In this document: in pieces, positions 1 through 16,007 of the stretch
Position numbering within the stretch: the stretch's first letter is position 1
Layout: each line of letters starts with the position of its first letter
Origin: a bacterium
GTDB lineage: Bacteria; UBA8248
Assembly (NCBI GenBank): GCA_965219955.1
Contig: OZ244799.1
Span: forward strand, 4,000,001 to 4,064,000
DNA length: 64,000 nt
Reading direction: 5' to 3'
Notes under the pieces: model-generated
Database searches by the model: none
Seen by the model: only the letters and a program-made list of their open reading frames with translations
Told to the model about the DNA's origin: nothing
Program-made: the position numbers and the translations under genes

Positions 1-2556
1 GAGGGGGAGCAAATCGCCGTCGTGGGCATGGCGTGCCGCTTCCCCGGCGCGCCGGATATCTCCGCTTTTTGGCGACTGCTCGAAGCGGGCGGTGACGCGG
101 TGACGGACGGGCGGCGGGATTCCGGCCCCTGGAGCGGCGTCGCCGGAGACCCGGCCGCCGAAAAAGACTTCTACCGGCAAGGCGGGTTCATCGAAGGAAT
201 CGACCAGTTCGATGCGAGTTTCTTCGGCATCAGGCCGATCGAGGCGCGCTTGATGGATCCGCGCCAAAGACTGTTGCTCGAGACGAGTTGGGGGGCGCTC
301 GAGGACGCAGGCATAGACCCCGCTCCGCTCAAGGGTACTCGCACCGGTGCGTATGTCGGACTGGGCGTCAGCGAGTACCGCGACCTCGTCGTGGCCGGCG
401 GCCTGGCTGACAGCCACATCGGCAACGCGCCGAGCGTGGCCATCGGGCGGATCGCCTTCGTTCTTGGCCTGATGGGACCGGCGGTGCCGCTGGACATGAC
501 CTGCGCGTCGTCGCTGGTGGCGGTTCACCAGGCGGCCGCAGCCCTTCGGGAGGGCGAAGTCGACCTGGCTCTCGCCGGGGGCGTGCACGCGGTGCTCTCG
601 CCTCCGGTTTCGAAATTCATGGCGGAGTTCGGGATGTTGTCGCCGAGCGGCCGGTGCCGGACCTTCGATGCGGACGCGGACGGCTACGTGCGGGGTGAAG
701 GCTGCGGGATGGTGGTCATGAAGCGGCTGAGCGACGCAGAGACGGACGGCGACCGCATCTGGGGTCTGGTGCAGGGATCGGCGGTGAACCAGAACGGCGC
801 GAGCGCCGCGCTTACGGTGCCCAACGGCACGGCGCAGGAACAGGTGCTCGAGGATGCGCTTTCCCGGTCCGGCTTTTCGCCCTCGGAGGTGGATTATCTG
901 GAAGTACACGCGACGGGGTCGCAATTGGGCGACCCGATCGAGGTGCGCGCGTCGGCGGCGGTGTACGGGCGAGGACGCGCTCCTGACCGTCCTCTCCTGC
1001 TCGGTACGGTGAAGACGAACATCGGCCATCTGGAATCGGCGGCGGGGATCGCCGGCCTGATCAAGGTGTTGCTGGCGATGAAGCACGGAATGATCCCAAA
1101 GCACCTGCATTTCGATAACCCGAATCCGCATATGGACTGGGACGCGCTTCCGTTGCGGGTGACGTCTGAAGCGACGGCCTGGCCGCTCGTATCCGATCGT
1201 CCGCGCCGGGCGGGCGTGAGCGCTTTTGCGCTTTCGGGTACGAACGCGCACGTCCTGGTGGAGGGGTACGGCGCGCCGGAGGGGGAGTCAGCCGCAGACG
1301 CCGGACCGGGTTCCCCCGCGGGTTTCGCGCAGCCCGTCTCCGTAACGCTGCCGGAGTCGGTCCCGGAATCGCCGTCGGTAGATGGGATGCGTCCGCGCAG
1401 GACGCGGATGCTGCCGCTCTCGGGAAAATCGGACGAAGCGCTTCGTGAGTCGGCGGGGCGGTATCTCTCCTGGCTGGATGAGTGCGCCGGGGAGCTTTCC
1501 TCCGAGGGCGCCGCTGCAGAGCCGCTGCTTTCGGATATGGCCTGGACGGCGGCCGTGGGGCGGAGCCATTTCGCGCACCGCGTGGGTGTCGTATTCGAGG
1601 ACGCCGCGTCGTTGCGGGAAGGATTGAGAGCGATCGAGGAGTCAGACGGGTTGCCGAAGCCGCAGGCGGCGGCGAGGGTGGCCTTCGCGTATGCCGGAGA
1701 GAGCGGACACGGGGTCGGCATGGGCGAGGAACTCTATGAGAGCGAGCCGGTGGCGCGCGCGGTACTGGATAGATGCGACGAGGTGATTCGGGTGGAGCGC
1801 GGCGCCTCGCTGCTGGATGTGATGTTCGGCCGTTCTGGAGATCTGGACGATCCGGCGTGGTCGCAGCCGGCGGTCTTTGCGCTCGAGTGCGCGCTCACAA
1901 CGCTTTGGGCGAGTGTCGGGATTCGGCCGAACGTGGTGTTCGGCGCAGGTTCCGGAGAAGTTGCGGCGGCGCATGCGGCGGGCGTGTTCGCGCTGGAGGA
2001 GGGCTTGCGTTTCGCGGCGCGGCGCGGCGCGCTGATGGAGGCGCTCTCGGGAGACGAGGGAGTGGAGGCGGCCCTGGATGATATCGAAACGGCGCTCGAG
2101 GGCGTTGTGACGGCGTTGCCCTCGCTCACGCTGGTGAATCAGGTGACGGGCCGGGCGCTCGGGGCGGGCGAGACCATGGATGGCGCATATTGGCGACGGC
2201 AGGCGCGTGAACCGGCGGCGTTCGACGGATGCGCCAAGACGCTCGCGGAGTCGGGCGTGGAGGTCGTCGTGGAGATCGGGCCGGATGCGGCGTTCGTCCC
2301 GCAGGTGCTCTCGGCCTGGCCCGATCTTTCAGGCGACGCAGGAGCGAGCGGAAACGGCGCCGCGCCGCCGGTGATGCTTTCGAGCCTGAACCGGGCGTCT
2401 GAGAATGGCGCCGGGTTTGTCGAGGCGGTTGCGCGGGCGTATGAGGCGGGGCTCGCGCTCGACTTCGCCGGGCTGTTCGCCGGAGAGGAGAGGCGGCGGA
2501 TCTCGCTGCCGGGCTACCCGTTCCAACGCCGTCGCTTCTGGTTCGAGGCGCCCTGA
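1..2556 (+). CDS. supA: C-terminal part (KS + degenerate AT) of a type I PKS, SupA-like; 5' end lies outside the window
   Basis: Frame is open from base 1. KS motifs GMACRFPG, DMTCASS (Cys), EVHATGS, KTNIGHLE. The AT has GAGSGE in place of GHSxGE. Ends LPGYPFQRRRFW. Followed by ACP, PPTase, permease and hydrolase as in sponge-symbiont sup clusters. Confidence 0.85.
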   Translation, partial: EGEQIAVVGMACRFPGAPDISAFWRLLEAGGDAVTDGRRDSGPWSGVAGDPAAEKDFYRQGGFIEGIDQFDASFFGIRPIEARLMDPRQRLLLETSWGALEDAGIDPAPLKGTRTGAYVGLGVSEYRDLVVAGGLADSHIGNAPSVAIGRIAFVLGLMGPAVPLDMTCASSLVAVHQAAAALREGEVDLALAGGVHAVLSPPVSKFMAEFGMLSPSGRCRTFDADADGYVRGEGCGMVVMKRLSDAETDGDRIWGLVQGSAVNQNGASAALTVPNGTAQEQVLEDALSRSGFSPSEVDYLEVHATGSQLGDPIEVRASAAVYGRGRAPDRPLLLGTVKTNIGHLESAAGIAGLIKVLLAMKHGMIPKHLHFDNPNPHMDWDALPLRVTSEATAWPLVSDRPRRAGVSAFALSGTNAHVLVEGYGAPEGESAADAGPGSPAGFAQPVSVTLPESVPESPSVDGMRPRRTRMLPLSGKSDEALRESAGRYLSWLDECAGELSSEGAAAEPLLSDMAWTAAVGRSHFAHRVGVVFEDAASLREGLRAIEESDGLPKPQAAARVAFAYAGESGHGVGMGEELYESEPVARAVLDRCDEVIRVERGASLLDVMFGRSGDLDDPAWSQPAVFALECALTTLWASVGIRPNVVFGAGSGEVAAAHAAGVFALEEGLRFAARRGALMEALSGDEGVEAALDDIETALEGVVTALPSLTLVNQVTGRALGAGETMDGAYWRRQAREPAAFDGCAKTLAESGVEVVVEIGPDAAFVPQVLSAWPDLSGDAGASGNGAAPPVMLSSLNRASENGAGFVEAVARAYEAGLALDFAGLFAGEERRRISLPGYPFQRRRFWFEAP

Positions 2557-2644: not shown

Positions 2645-2866
2645 ATGGCAAGTGTCGAAGAACGCATGGGGGATCTGGTGGAGAAACATCTGGGCATCTC
2701 GGATCGGGCGATGCTGGACGCGGACTTGGGCGAAATCGGCGTGAACTCGGTGGATGCCGTGAACTTTCTCAAGGTCGTCGATCGGGAATTCGGGGTCGAA
2801 ATTACACAGGAAATTGCCAGAGACTTCAGAACTTTGAGGGACCTGATCGACTATCTGGATGGTTGA
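2645..2866 (+). CDS. supB: Stand-alone acyl carrier protein (SupB-like)
   Basis: 73 aa acidic protein with phosphopantetheine site IGVNSVD and C-terminal FRTLRDLIDYL; directly after the PKS. Confidence 0.8.
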   Translation: MASVEERMGDLVEKHLGISDRAMLDADLGEIGVNSVDAVNFLKVVDREFGVEITQEIARDFRTLRDLIDYLDG

Positions 2867-4346: not shown

Positions 4347-6077
4347 ATGAGTTCGAACGATTCGGGGCTTCGCTACCAGGCCGACGAAAAGCCACCGGTA
4401 AAAGTCGCTTTGGTCCTCGGCCTGCAACTCACCGCTATCAGCGTATCCGCCACGATTTTGCTCACGACGGTCGTGATGCGGGCCGCCGGCCAGAGCGAAG
4501 CCTATCTGGCATGGGCCGTGTTCGCCGCCGTCCTGATCGGAGGCGGGGCCACGATGCTGCAGGCGTTCCGGCTCGGGCGTTTCGGCATGGGGCACGTGCT
4601 CATGATGGGCAGCTCGGGGGCCTTCATCGCGGTATCCATCGAGGCGCTCACCGAGGGAGGGCCCGCTACCTTCGCCACCCTGGTCGTCGTCGCAGCGCTT
4701 TTTCAGTTCGTCATATCCGACAGGCTCGCGCTGTTCCGGCGGGTCCTGACCCCGTCCGTATCGGGAACGGTGCTCATGCTGATCCCGGTCTCGGTGATGG
4801 CGCCCGTCCTCAATCTGCTCAAGGACGTGCCGGAGGGCAGCCCGGCCCCGGGCGCTCCGCTGAGCGCTCTGGCGACAGTGCTCGTCATCTGCGGCCTCAC
4901 CCTCAAGGCGAGCGGGTCGCTTCGCCTCTGGGCGCCTGTCATCGGCGTCCTCGCAGGCTCGCTCGTCGCCGTCTTCTTCGGCATTTACGATACGGCCCGC
5001 GTCGCGGAGGCCGCCTGGGCCGGGCTGCCCCCGGTCGAATGGCAGGGCCTCGATCTCGGCTTCGGGCCGGCTTTCTGGTCGCTTCTTCCCGGGTTCCTGC
5101 TGGCGGCCACCATCGGCGCCATCCGGACGATCAGCAGCGCCGCCGCCGCCCAGCGCGTCTCCTGGCGTCGGCCCCGGGCGGTGGATTTCCGGGCGGTGCA
5201 GGGCGCGGTGGCCACTGACGGTCTGAGCAACCTGCTCTCCGGCCTCGCGGGAACGATGCCGAACACGTCCTATACGACGGGCGCATCCCTGGCCCAGCTC
5301 ACCGGGGTCGCGGCCCGCCACGTCGGGATCGCCGCAGGCGCGATGTTCGCGGCGCTGGCGTTTTTTCCGAAGGCGCTCGCCCTGGTGCTGGCGATACCGG
5401 GGCCGGTCTTCGCCGCCTATCTCATCGTGATGATGGCGATCCTCTTCATGATCGGCGTGCAGATGATCGTTCAGGACGGGATCGACTACCGCAAGAGCCT
5501 GATCGTCGGCGTCTCGTTCTGGCTCGGCGTGGCTTTCCAGAGCGGGGTCGTCTTCCCGGAGTTTTTCTCGAAATTCGCGGGCGGCCTCATGAACAACGGG
5601 ATGACGGCCGGGGGCCTCGTCGCCATCATCATGACCCTGTTCGTGGAGATGACCGAACCCCGCCCCGCCCGGACGGAAGCGGCGCTCGACGCCTCGTCCC
5701 TGCCGGAGCTCAGGGGGTTTCTCGGCGCGTTCGCCTCCGCGTGCAACTGGGATGAGGCGATGGCGAAGCGTCTGGGTGGCGTCTGCGAGGAGATTCTGCT
5801 GACGCTGCATGGACGAGACGAGGGCAGGGAGCAAAGCGGACGGCGTCTGGTTCTGCTCGCGAAAAAAGACAGCAGCGCAGCGGTTCTCGAGTTCATCGCG
5901 GCGGCGGGCGAGGGAGAGAACCTGGAGGATCGAGTCACCCTGCTCGGCGAGCAGACCGAAGAAGCCCACCTCGAGCAGGAAGTGTCGCTCAGGCTCTTGC
6001 GCCATCACGCGGCTTCGGTTCGCCACCAGCAATACCACGGCGCGGACATCGTGACCGTCCGCGTGGAAGCCCCATAG
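4347..6077 (+). CDS. Xanthine/uracil (NCS2/NAT) family permease with an extra C-terminal soluble domain
   Basis: Many hydrophobic segments, LGLQ near the N-terminus, NAT-like segment MPNTSYTTGASLAQLTGVAAR, and a soluble tail of about 140 aa. Confidence 0.85.
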   Translation: MSSNDSGLRYQADEKPPVKVALVLGLQLTAISVSATILLTTVVMRAAGQSEAYLAWAVFAAVLIGGGATMLQAFRLGRFGMGHVLMMGSSGAFIAVSIEALTEGGPATFATLVVVAALFQFVISDRLALFRRVLTPSVSGTVLMLIPVSVMAPVLNLLKDVPEGSPAPGAPLSALATVLVICGLTLKASGSLRLWAPVIGVLAGSLVAVFFGIYDTARVAEAAWAGLPPVEWQGLDLGFGPAFWSLLPGFLLAATIGAIRTISSAAAAQRVSWRRPRAVDFRAVQGAVATDGLSNLLSGLAGTMPNTSYTTGASLAQLTGVAARHVGIAAGAMFAALAFFPKALALVLAIPGPVFAAYLIVMMAILFMIGVQMIVQDGIDYRKSLIVGVSFWLGVAFQSGVVFPEFFSKFAGGLMNNGMTAGGLVAIIMTLFVEMTEPRPARTEAALDASSLPELRGFLGAFASACNWDEAMAKRLGGVCEEILLTLHGRDEGREQSGRRLVLLAKKDSSAAVLEFIAAAGEGENLEDRVTLLGEQTEEAHLEQEVSLRLLRHHAASVRHQQYHGADIVTVRVEAP

Positions 6078-6274
6078 CCGCTTGTTCGCGCACAGGCGAG
6101 AAGAATCATATACATGGCTCGAAGCGGGATTCCGGGCTTTGGATTCGACGGGGAACGACGTATCACTCCCCCAGGGGAAGTTGAAAAAGTTTGTTTCACG
6201 AGCGGGCGGACCCATGTGTCCGCCCATCCCCTAGAAGGGACCGCCACCTACAGAACCCCCCAACCCCCCTTGTC

Positions 6275-6487
6275 GGGGTTGTTGAAAAAGCCCTCCTCTC
6301 TCAGAAATGACGAACAAAACCACACCGCCTCATCCTGAGTAGCGGCGAAGCCGCGTATCGAAGGATGCCCTCTCGCCACGGCGCGAGTTCCTCGCCCTTC
6401 GATACGCCGCCTTCGGCGGCTACTCAGGGTGAGGAAAGAAGCGTCGGCGGTTTTCAGGGGACGCCTATGGGCTTTTTCAACAACCCC
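6275..6487. mobile_element. MITE-like element with terminal inverted repeats, carrying a GIY-YIG-type repeat doublet
   Basis: Ends GGGGTTGTTGAAAAAG ... CTTTTTCAACAACCCC; flanked by TTGTC at 6270-6274 and 6488-6492; internal doublet at 6329-6433. Confidence 0.75.
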
Positions 6488-6645
6488 TTGTCAGGGGGGC
6501 TTTTTGGGCAAACCCCTCAAGGGGAGAGCGGGAAACCGCCCGGAAGTTCATCGTCGGTGTGACCGACTGCGCTGCGGCGCTCATTCGGGACGGTCGGCGG
6601 CCCGCCATGCCGGGATCATCGATGCGGGCCTTCGGGGCCGGAGGC

Positions 6646-6675
6646 TTGTCAGGATGCGGGTGCTTCACTTATAAT
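6646..6675 (+). promoter_or_regulatory. Putative sigma70 promoter upstream of the second ACP
   Basis: TTGTCA (6646-6651), 18 nt spacer, TATAAT (6670-6675). Confidence 0.4.
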
Positions 6676-6750
6676 CTCGATATGGATTACGCGAAACGCA
6701 CCCGCTTCAGAATCTCACGCTAGCTACCACCGGAAAAGGAGTGAACACTC

Positions 6751-6978
6751 ATGTCGGCAACACAGGATCGCATCAAAGAGATCATCGCGAAAACGCTCGA
6801 CCTCGGCCATGAACCTGATTTCAACGCCCAGTTCAGCGAAGCAGATATTAACTCGATGGAGGCGGTCGCTTTCTTCAAACTCGTCAACGATGAGTTCGGC
6901 CTCGATATGGCCATAGAGGACTTCTCGAAGTTCAAGGACCTGCAGGCTCTTGTAGAACATATCGACGCGCGCGGCTGA
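6751..6978 (+). CDS. Second stand-alone acyl carrier protein
   Basis: 75 aa acidic protein with DINSMEAV Ser site, paralogous to 2645-2866; AAGGAG RBS. Confidence 0.85.
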   Translation: MSATQDRIKEIIAKTLDLGHEPDFNAQFSEADINSMEAVAFFKLVNDEFGLDMAIEDFSKFKDLQALVEHIDARG

Positions 6979-7919: not shown

Positions 7920-7929
7920 GCCGCGCGCG

Positions 7930-8414
7930 AAGGACTGTTGAAAAAGCCCCCCTTTTCAGGGGATAGAGGGGACGCCGCCGTAGGGACAGGTCGCGACCTG
8001 TCCCTACAAGAAGCGGTGTGGTTTTGTTCGTCATTCCGGCGAAAGCCGGAATCCATTTTGACTTTTCACCGAGCAGGGCGGCCAAGACCTTGTTGTTGCC
8101 CGGCGTCCGGATGCGGAATGCAGAGAATCCGCCTTTCGTTTTTGTATTCGATTCCGGTCCTCCCCACCGGAGTGTAAAAATGTCCAAGCGAGGAGGTAAA
8201 AAGGCAAAGGCGGAAATGGATTCCGGCTTTCGCCGGAATGACGGGTGTTGTGATCTCTCCGGAAGGGTGTCGTAGGGGCGCTTCGTGAAGCGCCCGTTTC
8301 TCCGGCAAGGGCCGTTCGCGAACGTGGGCGGTTCGCGAACCGCCCCTACGGACCCCCTATCCCTCCTTGTCAGGGTGGGTGCTTTTCAAGTCAAGGGAGC
8401 GGTCAACAACCTCG
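7930..8414. repeat. Intergenic repeat mosaic between convergent genes
   Basis: Perfect 28-bp palindrome GTAGGGACAGGTCGCGACCTGTCCCTAC (7980-8007); inverted pair CGTCATTCCGGCGAAAGCCGGAATCCA (8029-8055 and 8217-8243); GTAG doublet at 8272-8349. Confidence 0.85.
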
Positions 8415-9590
8415 TCAGGGGCTGTCTGCGGTTGTGGCGTCCCGCGCGGCCATCCTCTTGCTGACTATCTCCTGAAACACCATCAAGAGCCCTTCCTCGA
8501 GACCCAGCATGTGGGTTTCGTTCACTCCGTCCAGCAGGTTGGCCTGAACCCGTTCCGCCATCATGTAATCTTCGTCGTCCAACGTGACCTCCGCGTAGAG
8601 GAAGCGGTTGCGCAACGCTTTCTGCCCCGACTCCCCGACGTATTTATCGGGAAGATAGAGCAGTTCCTGCGAGCAGAGCGTTCGATCCGGGGCCAGCGGC
8701 AAGAACCTGCTGATTAAAATGGTGTCATCGCGCACGATGAAAATCGTGTTGGGGAACAGAACATAAAAAAGCGTTACGAAGTCGATAAGCTTTCTCTGTT
8801 TCTCCGGGACGTTTTCCGCCTCCGGCAAGTTCGTTTGTGCGGCCATAACGCGCAGATGAGGCCCCTCCACGTCGTGAGAAAGAAAACCTTCGCGGAAATT
8901 CGGAGCCAGGGTTCCTTTGTGAAGATGCGCAACGTGGTAGCCTTCCAGGTTCATTTGAACAAGAAGTTTCCAGTTGGCCTTTTTCTCCGTCACGACCCTT
9001 TTGTAGCTGACAAAACGCTCAAGTTGGAACTCCGCGAAATCTTCCGCGAAAGCGCCCAGATCCTGCGCCGGATCGAACGACTCATGTCCAGTTGGGTGAA
9101 CCCATATCAATCCCGTGCTCTCCGCCACCGAACACGCTTTCAGGCCGTAGTCGCGCTTGTCGATGCAAGGAAAGGAGGATGACCGCGGAATACCCCGTAG
9201 CGCGCCGTCCAGGCCATACGTCCACCCGTGAAACGGACAAACCAGCGCCCGCAGCGGTTCGTCTTTCTCCCTGAGAAGAAGCGGTGAGCCCCGATGACGG
9301 CAGGTGTTCAGAAATGCCCGGAGTACGCCGTCTTCGCCCCGGACGACGAAATACGGCCGGCGCGTCCAGTCGCCGAGCATGTAACTGCCAGGCTCACGAA
9401 CGCTGTCCATGTGCCCGGCCACGAGCGGGCTGCCAGAAAACAGCGTCTCGAGCTCGCGCTCGAAGATCTCCTGGCTGGTATAGGCGTCCAGGGGCAGACG
9501 CAAGGCCGTGTCGTAAATCTGTTGGTCTTCGGGTCGCCCGCGGAGTTCAAGCATTCTGTCGAGCAACGCCATCTGACGATCGTGTTTCAT
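8415..9590 (-). CDS. Rieske non-heme iron oxygenase alpha subunit (ring-hydroxylating / choline monooxygenase-like)
   Basis: CRHRG...CPFHGW Rieske motif; NWK...EGYHVAHLH mononuclear iron site; distal DED. Confidence 0.92.
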   Translation of the reverse strand: MKHDRQMALLDRMLELRGRPEDQQIYDTALRLPLDAYTSQEIFERELETLFSGSPLVAGHMDSVREPGSYMLGDWTRRPYFVVRGEDGVLRAFLNTCRHRGSPLLLREKDEPLRALVCPFHGWTYGLDGALRGIPRSSSFPCIDKRDYGLKACSVAESTGLIWVHPTGHESFDPAQDLGAFAEDFAEFQLERFVSYKRVVTEKKANWKLLVQMNLEGYHVAHLHKGTLAPNFREGFLSHDVEGPHLRVMAAQTNLPEAENVPEKQRKLIDFVTLFYVLFPNTIFIVRDDTILISRFLPLAPDRTLCSQELLYLPDKYVGESGQKALRNRFLYAEVTLDDEDYMMAERVQANLLDGVNETHMLGLEEGLLMVFQEIVSKRMAARDATTADSP

Positions 9591-10597
9591 CGTTCCACGC
9601 GCTCCTTTGGTTCAGGTCGAAAGTCCCGTTCGCGCCGGATCGTACGACGCTCGCGGTTATCGAAAAAGGCGCATTCCGCGAGAACGTCGCCGTCCTTTGC
9701 TCCGGCTTCCGCGATCTCCATGTGGAAACGGGTAATCGGTTTATACGGGAAGAACCCCTTCCCGTACTGTTCCGCTGGGTATTCGAGGTTTTTCGCCCGC
9801 TCCAGATCGTAGTGCGACCCGACATCCACAAAGCGCATCGCGTAGGCGGCGCGCTTGGGGAGCGCGCCCTCACCGAGCATGATGCTGCGGTGGACGACCA
9901 TTTTGTTGAACAGGAGCGCGTCGCCGGGCGCAAAATCGTCTTCGATCTGGTGGTTCTCCAGTATCTCGCACATGGTCGGCGAATTCAGGATTCCTTCGCG
10001 CATGGCGAAGTACTCATTTACGTTCGTCCTGACCCCGGCGCGCTCCTTGGCCTCCAGCGTCGAGACGACCGCCGGCTCGATCTGGCGGAAGACGAAATCG
10101 CCCGATATGACGTTCTGGGGGACATAAGCCATTCCGCCCCGCTGGCCCTTCGTATCCACGGGATGCAGCGGCGCCCAAATGGTGCACGCGAATTCCTCAG
10201 CGGGCTGAAAGCCGAAGCTCTGCACGCCGACGTGCCAGGGGAGCCCCTTGCTGACGTTCTTTTCGATTTCAAAGCACAACTCGGCAGTCAGGAAGAGATC
10301 GCATTCGGCCAGATCCGTCAGAGCCCGCCGGAAATAAGGCCGTTCCATCAGTTCATAGACTTGCCCTTTATCGGTCTCGAAGTCATACGTCGTTCGTATG
10401 TCGAGAAGTTCCGCTGAACGAGATTTGTTGAAATCGGTGGCCCCCTCCCCACTCAATTCGACTTCGACACGATTCAGAAGCGTCTCGACCACGTTATCGT
10501 TCAGGAACCCTTCCAGTTTGACGAAGCCGTCGCGCCGGAATTGCTCCTTCTGCTCCGGGGTGATGAAGAACTCGTTGTCGAAAGGATGGCTGCTCAT
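9587..10597 (-). CDS. PhyH-like Fe(II)/2-oxoglutarate enzyme with HxG motif (candidate halogenase), copy 2
   Basis: FRRDGFV N-terminus, WHVG, PGDALLFNKMVVHRS, downstream Arg (KRAAY); AGGAGG RBS; 4-nt overlap with the Rieske gene. Confidence 0.8.
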   Translation of the reverse strand: MSSHPFDNEFFITPEQKEQFRRDGFVKLEGFLNDNVVETLLNRVEVELSGEGATDFNKSRSAELLDIRTTYDFETDKGQVYELMERPYFRRALTDLAECDLFLTAELCFEIEKNVSKGLPWHVGVQSFGFQPAEEFACTIWAPLHPVDTKGQRGGMAYVPQNVISGDFVFRQIEPAVVSTLEAKERAGVRTNVNEYFAMREGILNSPTMCEILENHQIEDDFAPGDALLFNKMVVHRSIMLGEGALPKRAAYAMRFVDVGSHYDLERAKNLEYPAEQYGKGFFPYKPITRFHMEIAEAGAKDGDVLAECAFFDNRERRTIRRERDFRPEPKERVER

Positions 10598-10629
10598 CGT
10601 ATCCTCCTGCGCGTTTCCGCCGGCGATAT

Positions 10630-11607
10630 TCAACCGGCCTGGAGAGAGCGTTCGCGCCGGATGGTACGACGCTCGCGGTCGTCGAAAAAGGCGCATTCCG
10701 CGAGAAGGTCGCCGTCGCTCGCTCCGGCTTCTGCGATCTCGATGTGCTGACGGGTGAAAGGTTTATACGGAAAGAACCCCTTCCCGTACATTTCCACGGG
10801 GAATTCGAGCATCCGCGCCCGCTCCAGATCGTAGTGCGAGCCCGCATCGATGAAGCGCATCACGTAGGCGGCCCGCCTGGGAAGCGCCCCCTCACCGAGC
10901 ATGATGCTCCGGTGGACGACCATTTTGTTGAACAGGAGCGCGTCGCCGGGCTCGAAATCGTCTTCGACCTGGTGGTTCTCGAGTATCTCGCACATGGTCG
11001 GTGAATTGAGGATCCCCGAGCGCATGGAGAAGTATTCGTTTACGTTCGTCCTGTCCCCGGCCCGCTCCCTGGCCTGCAGCGTCGAGACGACCGCCGGCTC
11101 GATCTGGTGGAAGATGAAATCGCCCGATATGACGCGATCGGGGACATAAGCCATCCCGCCCCGCTGCCCCTTCGTATCCACGGGGTGCAGCGGCCCCCAT
11201 AGCGTGCACCCGAATTCTTCCGCGATCTGAAAACCGAAGCTCTGTGCGCCGACATGCCAGGGAAATCCCTTGCTGACGTTCTTTTCGACTTCAAAGCACT
11301 GCTCGAAGGTCAAAAAGAGGTCGCATTCGACCAGATCCGTAAGGGCCCTTCGCAAGTAAGGCCGTTCCAGCAGTTCATAGACAGCGGTCATTTCGCCCGC
11401 GAAGTCATATTTCGCTCGATTGAACATTGCATCGGCCTTGAAACTGTCGGCCTCCCCCCGGTCCATTTCGGCTTCGACACGATTCAGCAGCGCCTCGACC
11501 ACTTCAGAGTTGTAGAACCCTTCCAGTTTGACGAAGCCGTCGCGCCGGAATCGCTCCTTGTGCTCGGGGGTGACGTGGAACTCGTTGTCGAAAGGATGGC
11601 TGCTCAT
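10630..11607 (-). CDS. PhyH-like Fe(II)/2-oxoglutarate enzyme with HxG motif (candidate halogenase), copy 1
   Basis: Close paralogue of 9587-10597 with the same WHVG and VVHRS motifs; GGAGGAG RBS before ATG 11607. Confidence 0.8.
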   Translation of the reverse strand: MSSHPFDNEFHVTPEHKERFRRDGFVKLEGFYNSEVVEALLNRVEAEMDRGEADSFKADAMFNRAKYDFAGEMTAVYELLERPYLRRALTDLVECDLFLTFEQCFEVEKNVSKGFPWHVGAQSFGFQIAEEFGCTLWGPLHPVDTKGQRGGMAYVPDRVISGDFIFHQIEPAVVSTLQARERAGDRTNVNEYFSMRSGILNSPTMCEILENHQVEDDFEPGDALLFNKMVVHRSIMLGEGALPRRAAYVMRFIDAGSHYDLERARMLEFPVEMYGKGFFPYKPFTRQHIEIAEAGASDGDLLAECAFFDDRERRTIRRERSLQAG

Positions 11608-11780: not shown

Positions 11781-13922
11781 CTAAGCGAGGGTCCCGTTTC
11801 GTTTCGTTTTGCCTGTTTTCTTGCGCGTCATGACCAGCCGGCCGAGCGGGTCCACCTCCACGCGGAACGAAGGCGGTATGAGTACCGTGGAATCGGGCTG
11901 CTCGATGACCGCGGGTCCCGGAACCCGGTTTCCGCCTTTGAGGCGTTCGCGTTCATAGATGGGACAGTCGATGAAACTACCGGCTTCGCGAAAATGCACC
12001 TTCCGCTCGCCCTTGAGCGCCGCTTTTGGGCTTCGTGAGCCTGCGGCGATTTCTTTCGGGCGAATCCGGTCCGTGAGGCCGATGGCCGAGACGCGGAGGC
12101 TGACGGCCTGGACGCTTTCCGCCTCATCGGAGTAGCTGTACTGGCGCAGGTGCGCGTCGTGAAACGCCCTTCGCGCCTTGCCGAGCCATCTGGCGTTCAC
12201 CTTGCCGCCGGGCAGCGGCACGTTGATCTCGTAGTTCTGAAGCGGGTAGCGCAGGTCGGCCGAGCGCGCGAGCATACGCCTCAATCGGGGCGCCTTCTCG
12301 GCCTTGAGCCATTCGTCCGCCGCAGCTTCCAGCTCGGCCATGAGAGCGGCGATGGAGCCTGCGTTATCCCCGGCGAGGCTCAGGCGGGTGGTGGCCGTGA
12401 AGTCCGCTCTCATGTCCGCCCAAAGCAGGCCGAGGGCTGAGAAAACGCCCGGCGCCTCGGGGATGACGATGCGCGGAATCCCGAGTTCGTCCGCCAGGTC
12501 CGCCGCGTGCAGGGGGCCCGCGCCGCCGAAACCGATGAGCGCGAAATCACGCGGGTCATAGCCCCTGGCGACCGAGACCACGCGCAGGGTGCGGACCATG
12601 TGCGCGTTGACGACTTCAATGACGCCTGCGGCGGCTTCCATGGTGGACAGACCGAGCGGCCCGGCTATCTTCTCCTCGATGGCTTTTTCCGCAAATTCGA
12701 GGTTGAGGCGAGATTCTCCCCCGACGAAATAATCGGGGTTCAGGCGGCCCAGGACGAGGTTGGCGTCCGTGACGGTGGGTTCCTCGCCCCCGCGCCCGTA
12801 GCAGACCGGGCCGGGTTCGGAACCCGCGCTGCGGGGGCCGACTTTCAGAACGCCCACGCCGTCCACCGAAGCGATGGAGCCGCCGCCCGCGCCGCATTCG
12901 GTGAGATCGATGACGGGCGTCTTGACGGGGTACCCCGTGAAGCGCACCGCCAGGGACTGGTGCATGCCCATCCCGATCTCGTATTCGGTGGTGGTCTTGT
13001 AGGCGCCGCCCTCGATGAGGCTCGCCTTGGCCGTGGTGCCGCCCATGTCGAAGGAGATGACGTCGGGCTCTCCGAGCTCTTGAGCGAGAACGGCGGCGGC
13101 GATGACGCCTGCCGCGGGGCCTGATTCGATGAGCGTGTGGGGGCGTTCTCGCGCAGAAGCCGGCGACATCAGCCCGCCGGCGGAGTTCATGATGAGGAGC
13201 TTCTCGGGGCGGTGGCCGAGCCGGGAAACCTCATCGTGCAGCCTTTCCGTATAGCGCGCGAATATGGGCTTCAGGTAGCCGACGAGTGAGGCCGTGCTGG
13301 TTCGTTCGAACTCGCGGAATTCGGGCGTGATGTCGGAAGAAGCGACGATGTGGCGGCCCGGAAGCGCGCGAACGAGATGTTCTTTCACCCGGTGCTCGTG
13401 GGCGGGATTCAGGTAGGAGAAGAGCAGCGCGATCACCACAGATTCGGCGCCCGAGACGTCTAGCGCGTCCGCGAGCCGGTCGAGTTCTTTTTTCGTCAGC
13501 TTTGTGACGACGTCTCCGTTCCACGCCAGCCGCTCGTTCACCTCGAAACAGAGCCGCCGGGGGATGAGGGGCCTGGCCTTCACTTCCTGCAAGTTATACA
13601 GGCTCGGCCTGCGCTGGCGGGCGATCTCGAGGATGTCCCGGAACCCCCGGGTGGCGACCAGGGCGGTGCGCGCGCCTTTTGACTCCAAAACGGTGTTGGT
13701 GGCCACGGTGGTGGCGTGGAGGATGCGCCCCACCTCTCCGGGCGATATGCCTTGCGTCGCCCTCAGGAGTCCGTTTACGAAACAGCCCTCCAGGTTCACC
13801 GGCGTGGTGTCCACCTTATAGGAGGCGATGAGTCCCTCCTGCTCTCCCATGAGGACGACGTCGGTGAACGTGCCGCCGATGTCCACGCCGACGCGGTATT
13901 TCGCTTTCTTCTCAGGAGCCAT
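11781..13922 (-). CDS. hyuA: Hydantoinase/oxoprolinase family subunit A (N-methylhydantoinase A-like)
   Basis: VDIGGTFTD, SGPAAG, DMGGTT, GAGGGS, GPVCYG and PTVTDA motifs. Confidence 0.9.
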   Translation of the reverse strand: MAPEKKAKYRVGVDIGGTFTDVVLMGEQEGLIASYKVDTTPVNLEGCFVNGLLRATQGISPGEVGRILHATTVATNTVLESKGARTALVATRGFRDILEIARQRRPSLYNLQEVKARPLIPRRLCFEVNERLAWNGDVVTKLTKKELDRLADALDVSGAESVVIALLFSYLNPAHEHRVKEHLVRALPGRHIVASSDITPEFREFERTSTASLVGYLKPIFARYTERLHDEVSRLGHRPEKLLIMNSAGGLMSPASARERPHTLIESGPAAGVIAAAVLAQELGEPDVISFDMGGTTAKASLIEGGAYKTTTEYEIGMGMHQSLAVRFTGYPVKTPVIDLTECGAGGGSIASVDGVGVLKVGPRSAGSEPGPVCYGRGGEEPTVTDANLVLGRLNPDYFVGGESRLNLEFAEKAIEEKIAGPLGLSTMEAAAGVIEVVNAHMVRTLRVVSVARGYDPRDFALIGFGGAGPLHAADLADELGIPRIVIPEAPGVFSALGLLWADMRADFTATTRLSLAGDNAGSIAALMAELEAAADEWLKAEKAPRLRRMLARSADLRYPLQNYEINVPLPGGKVNARWLGKARRAFHDAHLRQYSYSDEAESVQAVSLRVSAIGLTDRIRPKEIAAGSRSPKAALKGERKVHFREAGSFIDCPIYERERLKGGNRVPGPAVIEQPDSTVLIPPSFRVEVDPLGRLVMTRKKTGKTKRNGTLA

Positions 13923-15708
13923 GCTGGAGGGCCTCCCTGCGTTTCAGCGCTTCATCGACAAGGGCGTTCGGATAGGACGCCCTGGCGTATTCGAGCGAAA
14001 TCTTTCCGTCCGCGAGATCGGCCGCCAACTCTTCCGGAGGGTGTTCGGCCGGGTCGCCGTACCCGCCGGCCCCGGCCGACTGGCACCTGAGCACATCACC
14101 CTCCCGCATCTCGTGGGGGCCGCCCTTGCTCGGCAGCTTCGTTTCATTCGGCTCCCCGGGATTTTTCAGGTGAATCCCCCTCGCGCCTTCCTTGCCCCCG
14201 AAAAGGGGCCAGGGGGAGAAATCGTGCCGGTCGGCGTGGGCGATGAAGCCCGTGTCGCTGAGCATCAGAAAGTCTTTTCTCGTGGCGAGTCCGCCCCGGC
14301 GGCGTCCCGCGCCGCCGCTGTCGGGCACGAGCTCGAAGCGCTCCACGCGGATGGGGTATTCACTCTCGAGGATCTCGACGGGCAGGTTCGGTATGTTGTT
14401 CGTGTGAATCTGGACGGCGTCCATTCCGTTGCTCGTCTCGCGGCCGCCCATGCCGCCGCCGATGCCGTCGATGCAGATGAACGGCCTTCGCCGGATGGCG
14501 TCGAAGCCGTGGATGTTGATGGAGGTGGTGCCGTGGCCGCAGGCGCATACGCGCTCCGGCGCGACCTTCGACATGACGCCGATGAGCAGATCGGCCAGCC
14601 GCTGGCAGGTGGTGCCGCGTCCGCCCACGGGCGCGGGCGGGCTGGGGTTCACGACGCTCTCCTCGGGCGCTACGAGCCTCACCACGCGCTCGAACGCCGC
14701 GTTCGACCACAGTTCGGGGTCGATGGTCGCCTTGAGCGCGTAGGCGACAGTGGCGAACAGCGCTTCATAGACGACGTTCACGCCGCCCGTTCTCTGCCGG
14801 CTCGAACCCGTGAAGTCGAAAACCATGTGAGGCTCAGGATTATGCGAGATGGTGAGCGTCACCTTGAGCGGTACCGGGCCGGGCACGTGGGCGTCGTCGT
14901 CGAGCTGGTCCTCGAAATCCCACGTCCCCTCGGGCAGTTCCTTTATCTTCGCGCGGATCGTTCGTTCGTTGTAGTCGAGCACGCCTTCCACGAGTTCGAG
15001 AAAACGCCCGGCGCCGTATTTTTCGCTCAGTTCCTGAAGGCGCCGGACGCCCAGCTGGTTGCACGCGGCCTGCGCGCGGAGGTCGGCCGGTCTGTCTTCC
15101 GAGAAGCGCATGTTCAGGAGGATGAAGGAGAAGAGGTCTTCCTGCAGTACGCCCTCCTTGAAAATTTTCATGGGTGGTATGCGCAGGCCCTCCTGGTATA
15201 TCTCGTTGCAGCCCTCGGTCATCGCGGCGCCCGGCTTGATGCCGCCCACGTCCGGCCAGTGGCCCATGTTGGCGACGAAGCCGATGAGGCGCTTGCCGTC
15301 GAACACCGGCGAGGCCACCGTGACGTCGGCGAGGTGGGTTCCGCCGCCGTGGTAGGCGTCGTTCGCCAGGAAGGCGTCGCCGGGCCTGAGTTCTTCCAGC
15401 GGGTAGCGCTTCAGGATGTTGCGGATGATGCTCAGCATCGCGCCCAGGTGCATGGGGATGTGCTCGGCCTGTGCGATGAGGCGGCCTTCGGCGTCGAAGA
15501 TGGCCGTCGAGGCGTCCTGGCGCTCCTTGATGTTCGTGGAGTAGGCCGTGCGGATGAGCGCCGCGCCCATCTCCTCGGCCACCGAGAGGAGGGCGTTCGA
15601 GAAGACCTCGAGCGCGACCGGATCGGGGGTCGCCGATGCGCGCCGCTTCGTGGTCTTCCGGCGCGAGGCCGCTTTTTTCGAACCCGCTTTCGTGCGTCCG
15701 GCCGGCAT
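13912..15708 (-). CDS. hyuB: Hydantoinase/oxoprolinase family subunit B
   Basis: RTAYSTNIKE, HIPMHLG, GGTHLAD, HWPDVGG, QEGLRIPP, GAGGYGDP; AAGGAG RBS; basic N-terminal extension. Confidence 0.9.
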   Translation of the reverse strand: MPAGRTKAGSKKAASRRKTTKRRASATPDPVALEVFSNALLSVAEEMGAALIRTAYSTNIKERQDASTAIFDAEGRLIAQAEHIPMHLGAMLSIIRNILKRYPLEELRPGDAFLANDAYHGGGTHLADVTVASPVFDGKRLIGFVANMGHWPDVGGIKPGAAMTEGCNEIYQEGLRIPPMKIFKEGVLQEDLFSFILLNMRFSEDRPADLRAQAACNQLGVRRLQELSEKYGAGRFLELVEGVLDYNERTIRAKIKELPEGTWDFEDQLDDDAHVPGPVPLKVTLTISHNPEPHMVFDFTGSSRQRTGGVNVVYEALFATVAYALKATIDPELWSNAAFERVVRLVAPEESVVNPSPPAPVGGRGTTCQRLADLLIGVMSKVAPERVCACGHGTTSINIHGFDAIRRRPFICIDGIGGGMGGRETSNGMDAVQIHTNNIPNLPVEILESEYPIRVERFELVPDSGGAGRRRGGLATRKDFLMLSDTGFIAHADRHDFSPWPLFGGKEGARGIHLKNPGEPNETKLPSKGGPHEMREGDVLRCQSAGAGGYGDPAEHPPEELAADLADGKISLEYARASYPNALVDEALKRREALQHGS

Positions 15709-16007
15709 GAAGATATTTCTCCTTCGCCTGGGCGGATGAGGCAACGGGAAGCCGTGCCCCTCATCCGGGGAAATCGTTTTTCCGCTCTTCGTTCAAGGCG
15801 GGGCGTTTCGGGAATGCGCGGCCGCCGCCGGGTGGCTGTAGAGGCGAACGCGCTGTTCACCGGACGCCCGGGTTTTTCGCTGCAACTTCACGGGAAAACC
15901 ACGCGCGCATTCCGCTTCCCGGGCGCAGCGCCAAGGTGGAGCGGATGTGTCGAGCCGCAGGTTTAGAGAGGAAGTTTTACACGAGTTTTCCGCCTGTGGG
16001 CAAAGGG

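Follow-up and report, generated by a model that had tools for sequence, protein, structure and literature searches.

Two BtnX-type halogenase genes and a Rieske oxygenase gene as a possible tailoring cassette of a SupA-type polyketide synthase cluster

Introduction

What do two adjacent genes for PhyH-like iron enzymes, followed by a gene for a Rieske oxygenase, do beside a large polyketide synthase (PKS) gene? The question is raised by a 64,000-nucleotide stretch of bacterial DNA (lineage UBA8248; assembly GCA_965219955.1, contig OZ244799.1, forward-strand positions 4,000,001 to 4,064,000), referred to here as the window. An earlier note on the window had proposed that the two enzymes, which would use Fe(II) and 2-oxoglutarate (2OG), form an uncharacterised family of radical halogenases working with the Rieske enzyme. 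We find that they belong to a known halogenase family which is repeatedly encoded beside PKSs of the same type. We give about an even chance to the reading that the three genes are a tailoring cassette of the PKS cluster, in which a released, free fatty acid would be α-chlorinated and then further oxidised by the Rieske enzyme.

The PKS is one that we take to be of the SupA type. Such sup (sponge symbiont ubiquitous PKS) systems dominate sponge metagenomes and are spread over sponge symbionts of several phyla, and their products are only proposed (PMC4245539, PMC9864124, PMC9426513, PMC3908369); the suggestion is that they make methyl-branched (mid-chain-branched) fatty acids (PMC4245539, PMC3908369, PMC9426513). 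A halogenase would provide a handle on these products, through the chlorine isotope pattern in extracts and through soluble 325-residue enzymes for assay on candidate acids. The genes in question are as follows.

10630..11607, minus strand: halogenase A (P0001, 325 residues), BtnX-family Fe/2OG enzyme; iron site H118-G120-H232, carboxylate network Y67/Q122/S123/R251
9587..10597, minus strand: halogenase B (P0002, 336 residues); iron site H122-G124-H236, carboxylate network Y71/Q126/S127/R255
8415..9590, minus strand: Rieske non-haem iron oxygenase alpha subunit, 391 residues; C97-x-H99, C118-x-x-H121, mononuclear-site motif at 216-224, acidic motif at 338-341

A and B are members of the BtnX subfamily

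The closest solved relative of both A and B is BtnX (PDB 9PV1/9Q04), which matches over the full length with E-values of 2e-139 and 5e-134, respectively, and which, translated from its plasmid, is 66% identical to each. The BtnX subfamily forms cluster X of the radical halogenases, and these values exceed the 50% identity cut-off of the network in the paper describing BtnX (PMC13489965). BtnX (Dshi_3684, UniProt A8LT50, from Dinoroseobacter shibae pDSHI01) is reported by Kipouros and Chang (Nature 2026; PMC13489965) to α-chlorinate biotin and free carboxylic acids. It binds chloride as well as Fe(II) and 2OG, holds the free carboxylate of its substrate and directs chlorine to the alpha carbon (2R in biotin), and it tolerates varied tails, fatty acids included (PMC13489965).

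The two-histidine, one-glycine iron sites of A and B align with BtnX H115/G117/H229, and the carboxylate network of BtnX (Y64/Q119/S120/R248) is fully kept in both, such that every residue named in PMC13489965 as a metal or carboxylate ligand (Y64/H115/G117/Q119/S120/H229/R248) is retained. The earlier note had correctly identified the W-H-V-G motif in both paralogues (His codons CAT at 11256-11254 in A and CAC at 10234-10232 in B, minus strand), the conserved distal His of VVHRS (H232 and H236) and a downstream Arg. Two such Arg residues are in fact kept, R245/R249 and R251/R255. The alignment also bears out its expectation that no replacement carboxylate would be found: there is no new Asp or Glu relative to BtnX in residues 95-140 or 210-255. 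The reading of A and B as radical halogenases is therefore upheld by their place in the BtnX family at 66% identity with the 2His-1Gly site kept, and on these alignments they are very probably α-halogenases.

Their description as an uncharacterised family, by contrast, does not survive. BtnX is a proven Fe/2OG α-chlorinase, and a new enzyme family for A and B is ruled out by the BtnX matches and by the source data of PMC13489965; the family is already known and its halogenase chemistry is predictable from BtnX. A Nitrospinota pair, A0A9E4F048/A0A9E4KE74, appears in the Fig. 1d table and, in a clade adjoining BtnX, in the Fig. 4c tree of that paper, and the two members have close locus tags and are of the Gly type in its source data (PMC13489965). 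Since the family is published, the surprise here is limited. Neither 'sponge' nor 'Rieske' occurs in the main text of the paper, and 'sponge' is absent from those of its supplements that were searched (PMC13489965). The Gly-to-Asp switch that had been suggested as an experiment is likewise already published for BtnX (PMC13489965, Extended Data Fig. 9 legend).

BesD, WelO5 and SyrB2, the families originally proposed for comparison, are not the nearest. A PDB search to an E-value of 10 returned six sequences, with CytC3 only at 0.96 and none of BesD, WelO5 or SyrB2; after BtnX, the next closest solved structure is the CurA halogenase (CurA-Hal; E 1.6e-26). An AlphaFold model of A (predicted local distance difference test score 93) has CurA-Hal as its best structural match, with a template modelling (TM) score of 0.78; this Foldseek search, of a library to April 2026, did not return BtnX. 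CurA-Hal (PDB 3NNF/3NNL) shares the W-H-V-G motif, the fold and a PKS context with A and B. However, it is embedded in its PKS and ACP (acyl carrier protein)-dependent, whereas A and B are free-standing and only about 20% identical to it in the structural alignment, and their annotated neighbours include no beta-branching cassette.

The two copies are 77% identical to one another, lie 32 nucleotides apart and are the only halogenase copies in the 4.28-Mb source genome. Pfam assigns PhyH to both, and NCBIfam has no model covering A, B or BtnX. Relatives carry separate orthologues of A and of B, and the ratio of non-synonymous to synonymous substitution rates (dN/dS) against four relatives is 0.16-0.29 for A and 0.10-0.18 for B; both are under purifying selection. 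Given this selection, and given that 117 of the 124 homologues with at least 55% identity to BtnX have the Gly of W-H-V-G, the motif is not a chance occurrence. B differs from A by the large-to-small changes F98A, F112L and V246A (BtnX numbering; V246 is two residues from the clamp residue R248) and by a longer 50-63 segment. The B pocket is probably the roomier of the two, with A and B differing in the size of their substrates.

Halogenase genes of this family travel with SupA-type PKSs

The PKS cluster of the window comprises the following features.

1..2556, plus strand: 3' end of the SupA-type PKS, an open reading frame of about 3,500 residues that starts outside the window (G000:C1:3992048-4002556); ketosynthase (KS)-acyltransferase (AT)-dehydratase (DH)-methyltransferase (MT)-enoylreductase (ER)-ketoreductase (KR)-ACP-KS-AT
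2645..2866, plus strand: free-standing ACP, 73 residues
2943..3791, plus strand: phosphopantetheinyl transferase (PPTase)
4347..6077, plus strand: NCS2-family permease of the PKS cluster
6751..6978, plus strand: second free-standing ACP, 75 residues
7020..7919, plus strand: alpha/beta hydrolase with a nucleophile-like motif H-S-L-S, the putative thioesterase of the PKS cluster
7920..8414, no strand: repetitive extragenic palindromic (REP)-like, genome-wide repeats between the convergent units

The cluster has every feature of the sup gene list, namely a KS-AT-DH-MT-ER-KR-ACP-KS-AT protein together with an ACP, a PPTase, a hydrolase and a permease. None of the best 120 homologues of the PKS bears the SupA name from any source. 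Published sup clusters resemble this one in having one large PKS with the same four kinds of partner, in many phyla of uncultured bacteria, while their descriptions, in the accessible text of those papers, mention no halogenase or Rieske accessory gene (PMC4245539, PMC3908369, PMC9426513). A literature search for halogenases or phytanoyl-CoA dioxygenases paired with sup clusters found no such report, most subscription journals lying outside its coverage.

We next counted a halogenase as linked if it lay within 10 kb of a SupA-type PKS. Twenty genomes were found by peptide patterns, 19 of which have the PKS, and the two are linked in 12. Among the remainder, one (G001) has the same order across a contig break, one (G005) is cut by a contig end, five are unlinked, and the last (G010) lacks any match to the PKS, its halogenase being truncated and interrupted by a stop at codon 9. 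A search of 1,103 genomes of three orders, made without the peptide pattern, added five genomes: three are linked, one has its halogenase 24 kb from the PKS, and in the fifth, where the PKS gave no match, the halogenase adjoins a permease homologue. Linkage is therefore seen in 15 of 25 other genomes and, once the source organism's genus is set aside, in 11 of 18; five phyla are represented (Nitrospinota, Acidobacteriota, Gemmatimonadota, Actinomycetota and Pseudomonadota). The count of 25 excludes G035, in which a halogenase fragment (residues 1-89) and the PKS are on different contigs. The chance expectation is about 0.10 of 17, a figure for which kin are not independent. Gene orders vary, and in some loci the halogenase is on the PKS strand among the PKS genes (within 0.4 kb in L017-L020), as in hydrolase-PKS-halogenase-ACP-PPTase (L030) and ACP-hydrolase-halogenase-PKS (L143), each on one strand.

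The metagenomic loci compared number 75. Four of the eight that are at least 60% identical have sup genes, three have BioY and energy-coupling factor (ECF) transporter genes, and one is too short; of the 67 less similar loci, 27 of which are at least 10 kb long, none has sup genes save for one 26% match to an ER region. In the source organism's own order (44 genomes), nine carry the halogenase and 11 the PKS, all in one genus, with both present in eight; the ninth halogenase, in the genome lacking the PKS, is broken. In another family (that of G015), the seed genome was the only one to have the halogenase among 85. An eight-member halogenase clade (support 100/99) matches an eight-member PKS clade (support 1.0) from the same eight genomes of three phyla, three of which are unlinked. 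By gene neighbourhood, then, this halogenase family travels with SupA-type PKSs across phyla, and the statement that the PKS link rests only on adjacency was too cautious.

The Rieske oxygenase and the second copy

The stop codon (TGA) of B and the ATG of the Rieske gene overlap by four nucleotides (9587-9590), as originally noted. Pfam identifies Rieske and Ring_hydroxyl_A domains, and the Cys/His motifs and mononuclear His-His-Asp site are present, with presumed ligand roles. The nearest solved enzymes are carnitine monooxygenases (E 7e-27). The domain pair and metal motifs are those of CntA/GbcA-type oxygenases, whereas overall similarity to these is weak, with scores far below every NCBIfam cut-off (110 bits against 670), those for GbcA, BenA and HcaE included, and the unit has no partner reductase gene; a single NAD_binding_1 gene was found, distant from the cassette. 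A plasmid search for Rieske relatives gave no informative context (best about 31%).

The dN/dS of the Rieske gene is 0.37-0.47. Close orthologues occur in seven of the 44 genomes of the order and are directly beside the halogenase in all seven. In another phylum, G1081 (from the order of a Vicinamibacteria genome) has the row permease, resistance-nodulation-division (RND) transporter, halogenase, His-to-Gln halogenase copy, Rieske, hydrolase, PKS; its two halogenase copies thus lie between permease and PKS, and its Rieske gene is 61% identical to ours. We consider it more probable than not that the Rieske enzyme acts in the same pathway as the halogenases. A single B-like copy keeps the Rieske gene in L008 and a single, PKS-linked A-like copy lacks it in L025, a pattern that hints at a pairing of B with the Rieske enzyme. 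The version with two copies and a Rieske gene is what this locus adds to the link between halogenase and sup cluster.

Other oxygenases occur near related halogenases. L007 has three copies of luciferase-like monooxygenases and a duplicated Rieske gene, and across L006:10442-11635, L007, L011:8288-11830 and L031:688-3370 the halogenase is adjoined by genes for luciferase-like enzymes, for a P450 (accompanied by a sulfate permease) and for two TauD proteins. An amidase, a second type of Rieske oxygenase and a flavin reductase form a common block after the PPTase at two PKS loci that bear a halogenase (L030:12148-16066 and L114:875-4822).

A proposed pathway and its alternatives

In the pathway that we favour, the product of the PKS would be an acyl chain, reduced and methyl-branched, which the alpha/beta hydrolase would release as a free acid; A and/or B would chlorinate C2 as BtnX does, and the Rieske oxygenase, served by a reductase from elsewhere in the genome, would add a hydroxylation or desaturation. 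A sup-derived substrate is somewhat more likely than not. That this substrate is free rather than tethered has considerably better prospects, as a free acid suits the conserved carboxylate clamp better than an ordinary acyl chain on an ACP would. Of the two substrates once suggested, ACP-bound or free acyl chains, it is the second that is favoured, and the first, lacking a free carboxylate, would need to be a diacid.

Several observations weigh against this pathway. Ten of the 25 genomes are not linked (two of these being interrupted by contig ends), three of the 11 PKS-bearing genomes of the order lack a halogenase, and in the family of G016 only three of 28 genomes have one as against 15 with a matching KS (some from other PKSs); the halogenase is an optional, dispensable part of the cluster. 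The congruence of the two trees across 12 lineages (rho 0.38, p 0.001) leans on one clade and is not significant among nine linked lineages (rho 0.24, p 0.09), and the shared transfer of halogenase and PKS could be hitch-hiking. The cassette in the window runs convergently towards the PKS genes, and its guanine-cytosine content is lower (0.58-0.59 compared to 0.63-0.68). No Rieske match above 35% identity was found in 13 halogenase genomes of other lineages, and L025 has its PKS link without this gene. Among the PKS-linked relatives, L144 has the HxD motif, one clade has H-x-G-x-D, L145 has His changed to Gln and L021 carries a stop, so halogenation is not universal among them. The SupA-type label is our assumption from gene set and architecture and from spread in uncultured bacteria. 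Literature listings gave nothing pointing to 2-chloro fatty acids in sponges, and the activity, substrate and product of A and B are all inferred from the present analysis.

A tethered substrate would be accommodated if A and B acted as CurA-Hal does, on an ACP-bound chain with a free distal carboxylate (a diacid or a 3-hydroxy-3-methylglutaryl (HMG)-like unit) carried by one of the two free ACPs. The CurA substrate has such a carboxylate. CurA-Hal is the next closest structure, the halogenase of L030 sits between PKS and ACP, and BtnX is itself placed between ACP-dependent and free-standing enzymes (PMC13489965). We nonetheless regard this as unlikely: a plain acyl-ACP offers the clamp nothing to grip, no HMG-CoA-synthase cassette is present among the annotated neighbours, and 66% identity to a free-acid enzyme outweighs about 20% to CurA-Hal. 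It is more doubtful still that A and B are true BtnX orthologues which chlorinate biotin or a similar vitamin-like acid, the PKS being close only through hitch-hiking in a mobile region. The level of identity, the conservation of all named contacts, a BATS-domain radical S-adenosylmethionine gene read as bioB in the source genome and five genomes with the halogenase far from the PKS are all compatible with that idea. Against these stand the lack of BioY in the source genome (94% complete) and in every sup-linked locus, a PKS link that persists through many different gene orders, and the coincidence of PKS loss with halogenase decay in G034. Moreover, the BioY/ECF-linked BtnX and L027-L029 lack a five-residue insertion near 275 that is common to the other near-full-length loci of at least 60% identity. 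A PKS making pimelate for (chloro)biotin was considered and set aside: no bioF/A/D/B block was seen beside the annotated PKS loci, and the bioB-like gene is found only at a distance of about 2.7 Mb.

Six of the 124 close homologues have Asp or Glu in place of the Gly, in G863 an HxD copy precedes the PKS by 88 bp, and P450, TauD, luciferase-like and second-type Rieske genes recur beside the halogenase gene. These features would suit enzymes that are mainly α-hydroxylases or general α-oxidases (e.g. for α-oxidation of methyl-branched fatty acids) with chlorination as a cryptic or side reaction. We think this quite improbable for A and B themselves, which have Gly and Gln exactly as in BtnX, where halogenation is suppressed only with Asp or Glu at 117 (PMC13489965). 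The least credible proposal, to which we attach very little weight, is a catabolic unit formed with the co-oriented hydantoinase/oxoprolinase A/B genes 173 bp upstream and a Rieske enzyme of the choline/carnitine type. These genes are kept upstream in L003, L006 and G035, and the nearest solved Rieske enzymes are of that kind; yet they are absent upstream in L004, L005, L008, L012, L025 and all loci of other phyla, and the Rieske scores fall far short of the cut-offs. The hydantoinase genes were accordingly rejected as part of the unit, their arrangement not being conserved.

Returning to α-chlorination of a released sup acid, the locus suggests that lipid products of the cluster can carry chlorine next to the acid group and that, for a large part of the BtnX subfamily, the molecules tailored are lipids and not biotin. 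The subfamily is also a source of naturally occurring paralogues and of Gly/Asp variants of a biocatalyst that is promiscuous. Going further, A might install a first chlorine and the roomier B a second, or B might act on an α-branched acid, after which the Rieske enzyme would desaturate the halo-acid or oxidatively decarboxylate it to a halo-alkene lipid, with a share of sup clusters making halogenated lipids. This extension is decidedly speculative and unlikely. Bacteria in sponges would then have a route to vinyl- or gem-dihalo lipids, and a natural exchange of Gly and Asp at a single iron ligand would decide, across the microbiome, between 2-chloro and 2-hydroxy products.

Motif variants among relatives

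Natural HxD members are found at L144:9476-10450 (G863, the copy adjacent to the PKS) and L141:9455-10486 (G382), and from their motif are candidate α-hydroxylases for the same products. A cluster look-up for HxD/E homologues yielded no gene context. In a clade comprising L014-L020 and L022, Asp replaces BtnX Q119 (W-H-V-G-V-D-S), the flanking strands are changed, and the clade co-varies with one PKS clade; such proteins might act on another substrate or bind iron through a replacement ligand.

BtnX is single-copy and beside BioY/ECF biotin uptake genes, whereas A and B are paralogues beside a Rieske oxygenase gene and a PKS and differ from it in the insertion near 275 and in a changed 50-63 segment. 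Monophyly of the non-BioY clade is weak in FastTree (0.85) and unresolved in IQ-TREE and is hence not claimed. A 47%-identical outgroup member adjoins a BioY-like gene (L033:2390-4013), which may mean that the association with biotin genes came first.

Other features of the locus

The convergent arrangement of the two units, separated by repeats, is as first described. The repeats themselves (up to about 280 blastn matches per 25-nucleotide bin) mark no functional boundary, since they are genome-wide and also occur inside the PKS cluster at 6078-6750. A promoter and terminator scan gave nothing exceeding shuffled controls. Contigs from two RNA runs of one study (X1 and X2, labelled sponge metagenome) partly cover the two halogenase genes, the Rieske gene and the two ACP genes, at about 87-99% identity; they are relatives' sequence, may contain DNA, and say nothing on level or co-transcription. 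Together with the type of PKS, these two runs point to a sponge habitat for the source bacterium.

A DUF5916 protein of 800-865 residues adjoins the PKS or halogenase in five loci (L102, L103, L119, L143 and L144). The second KS of the PKS (22-2556) retains its Cys in an altered motif and the second AT is without the usual Ser motif, as in most aligned homologues. The NCS2 permease (4347-6077) has about 170 additional C-terminal residues with no Pfam match. The hydantoinase/oxoprolinase A/B pair (11781-15744) is most like the caprolactamase CapAB, at scores below its cut-offs.

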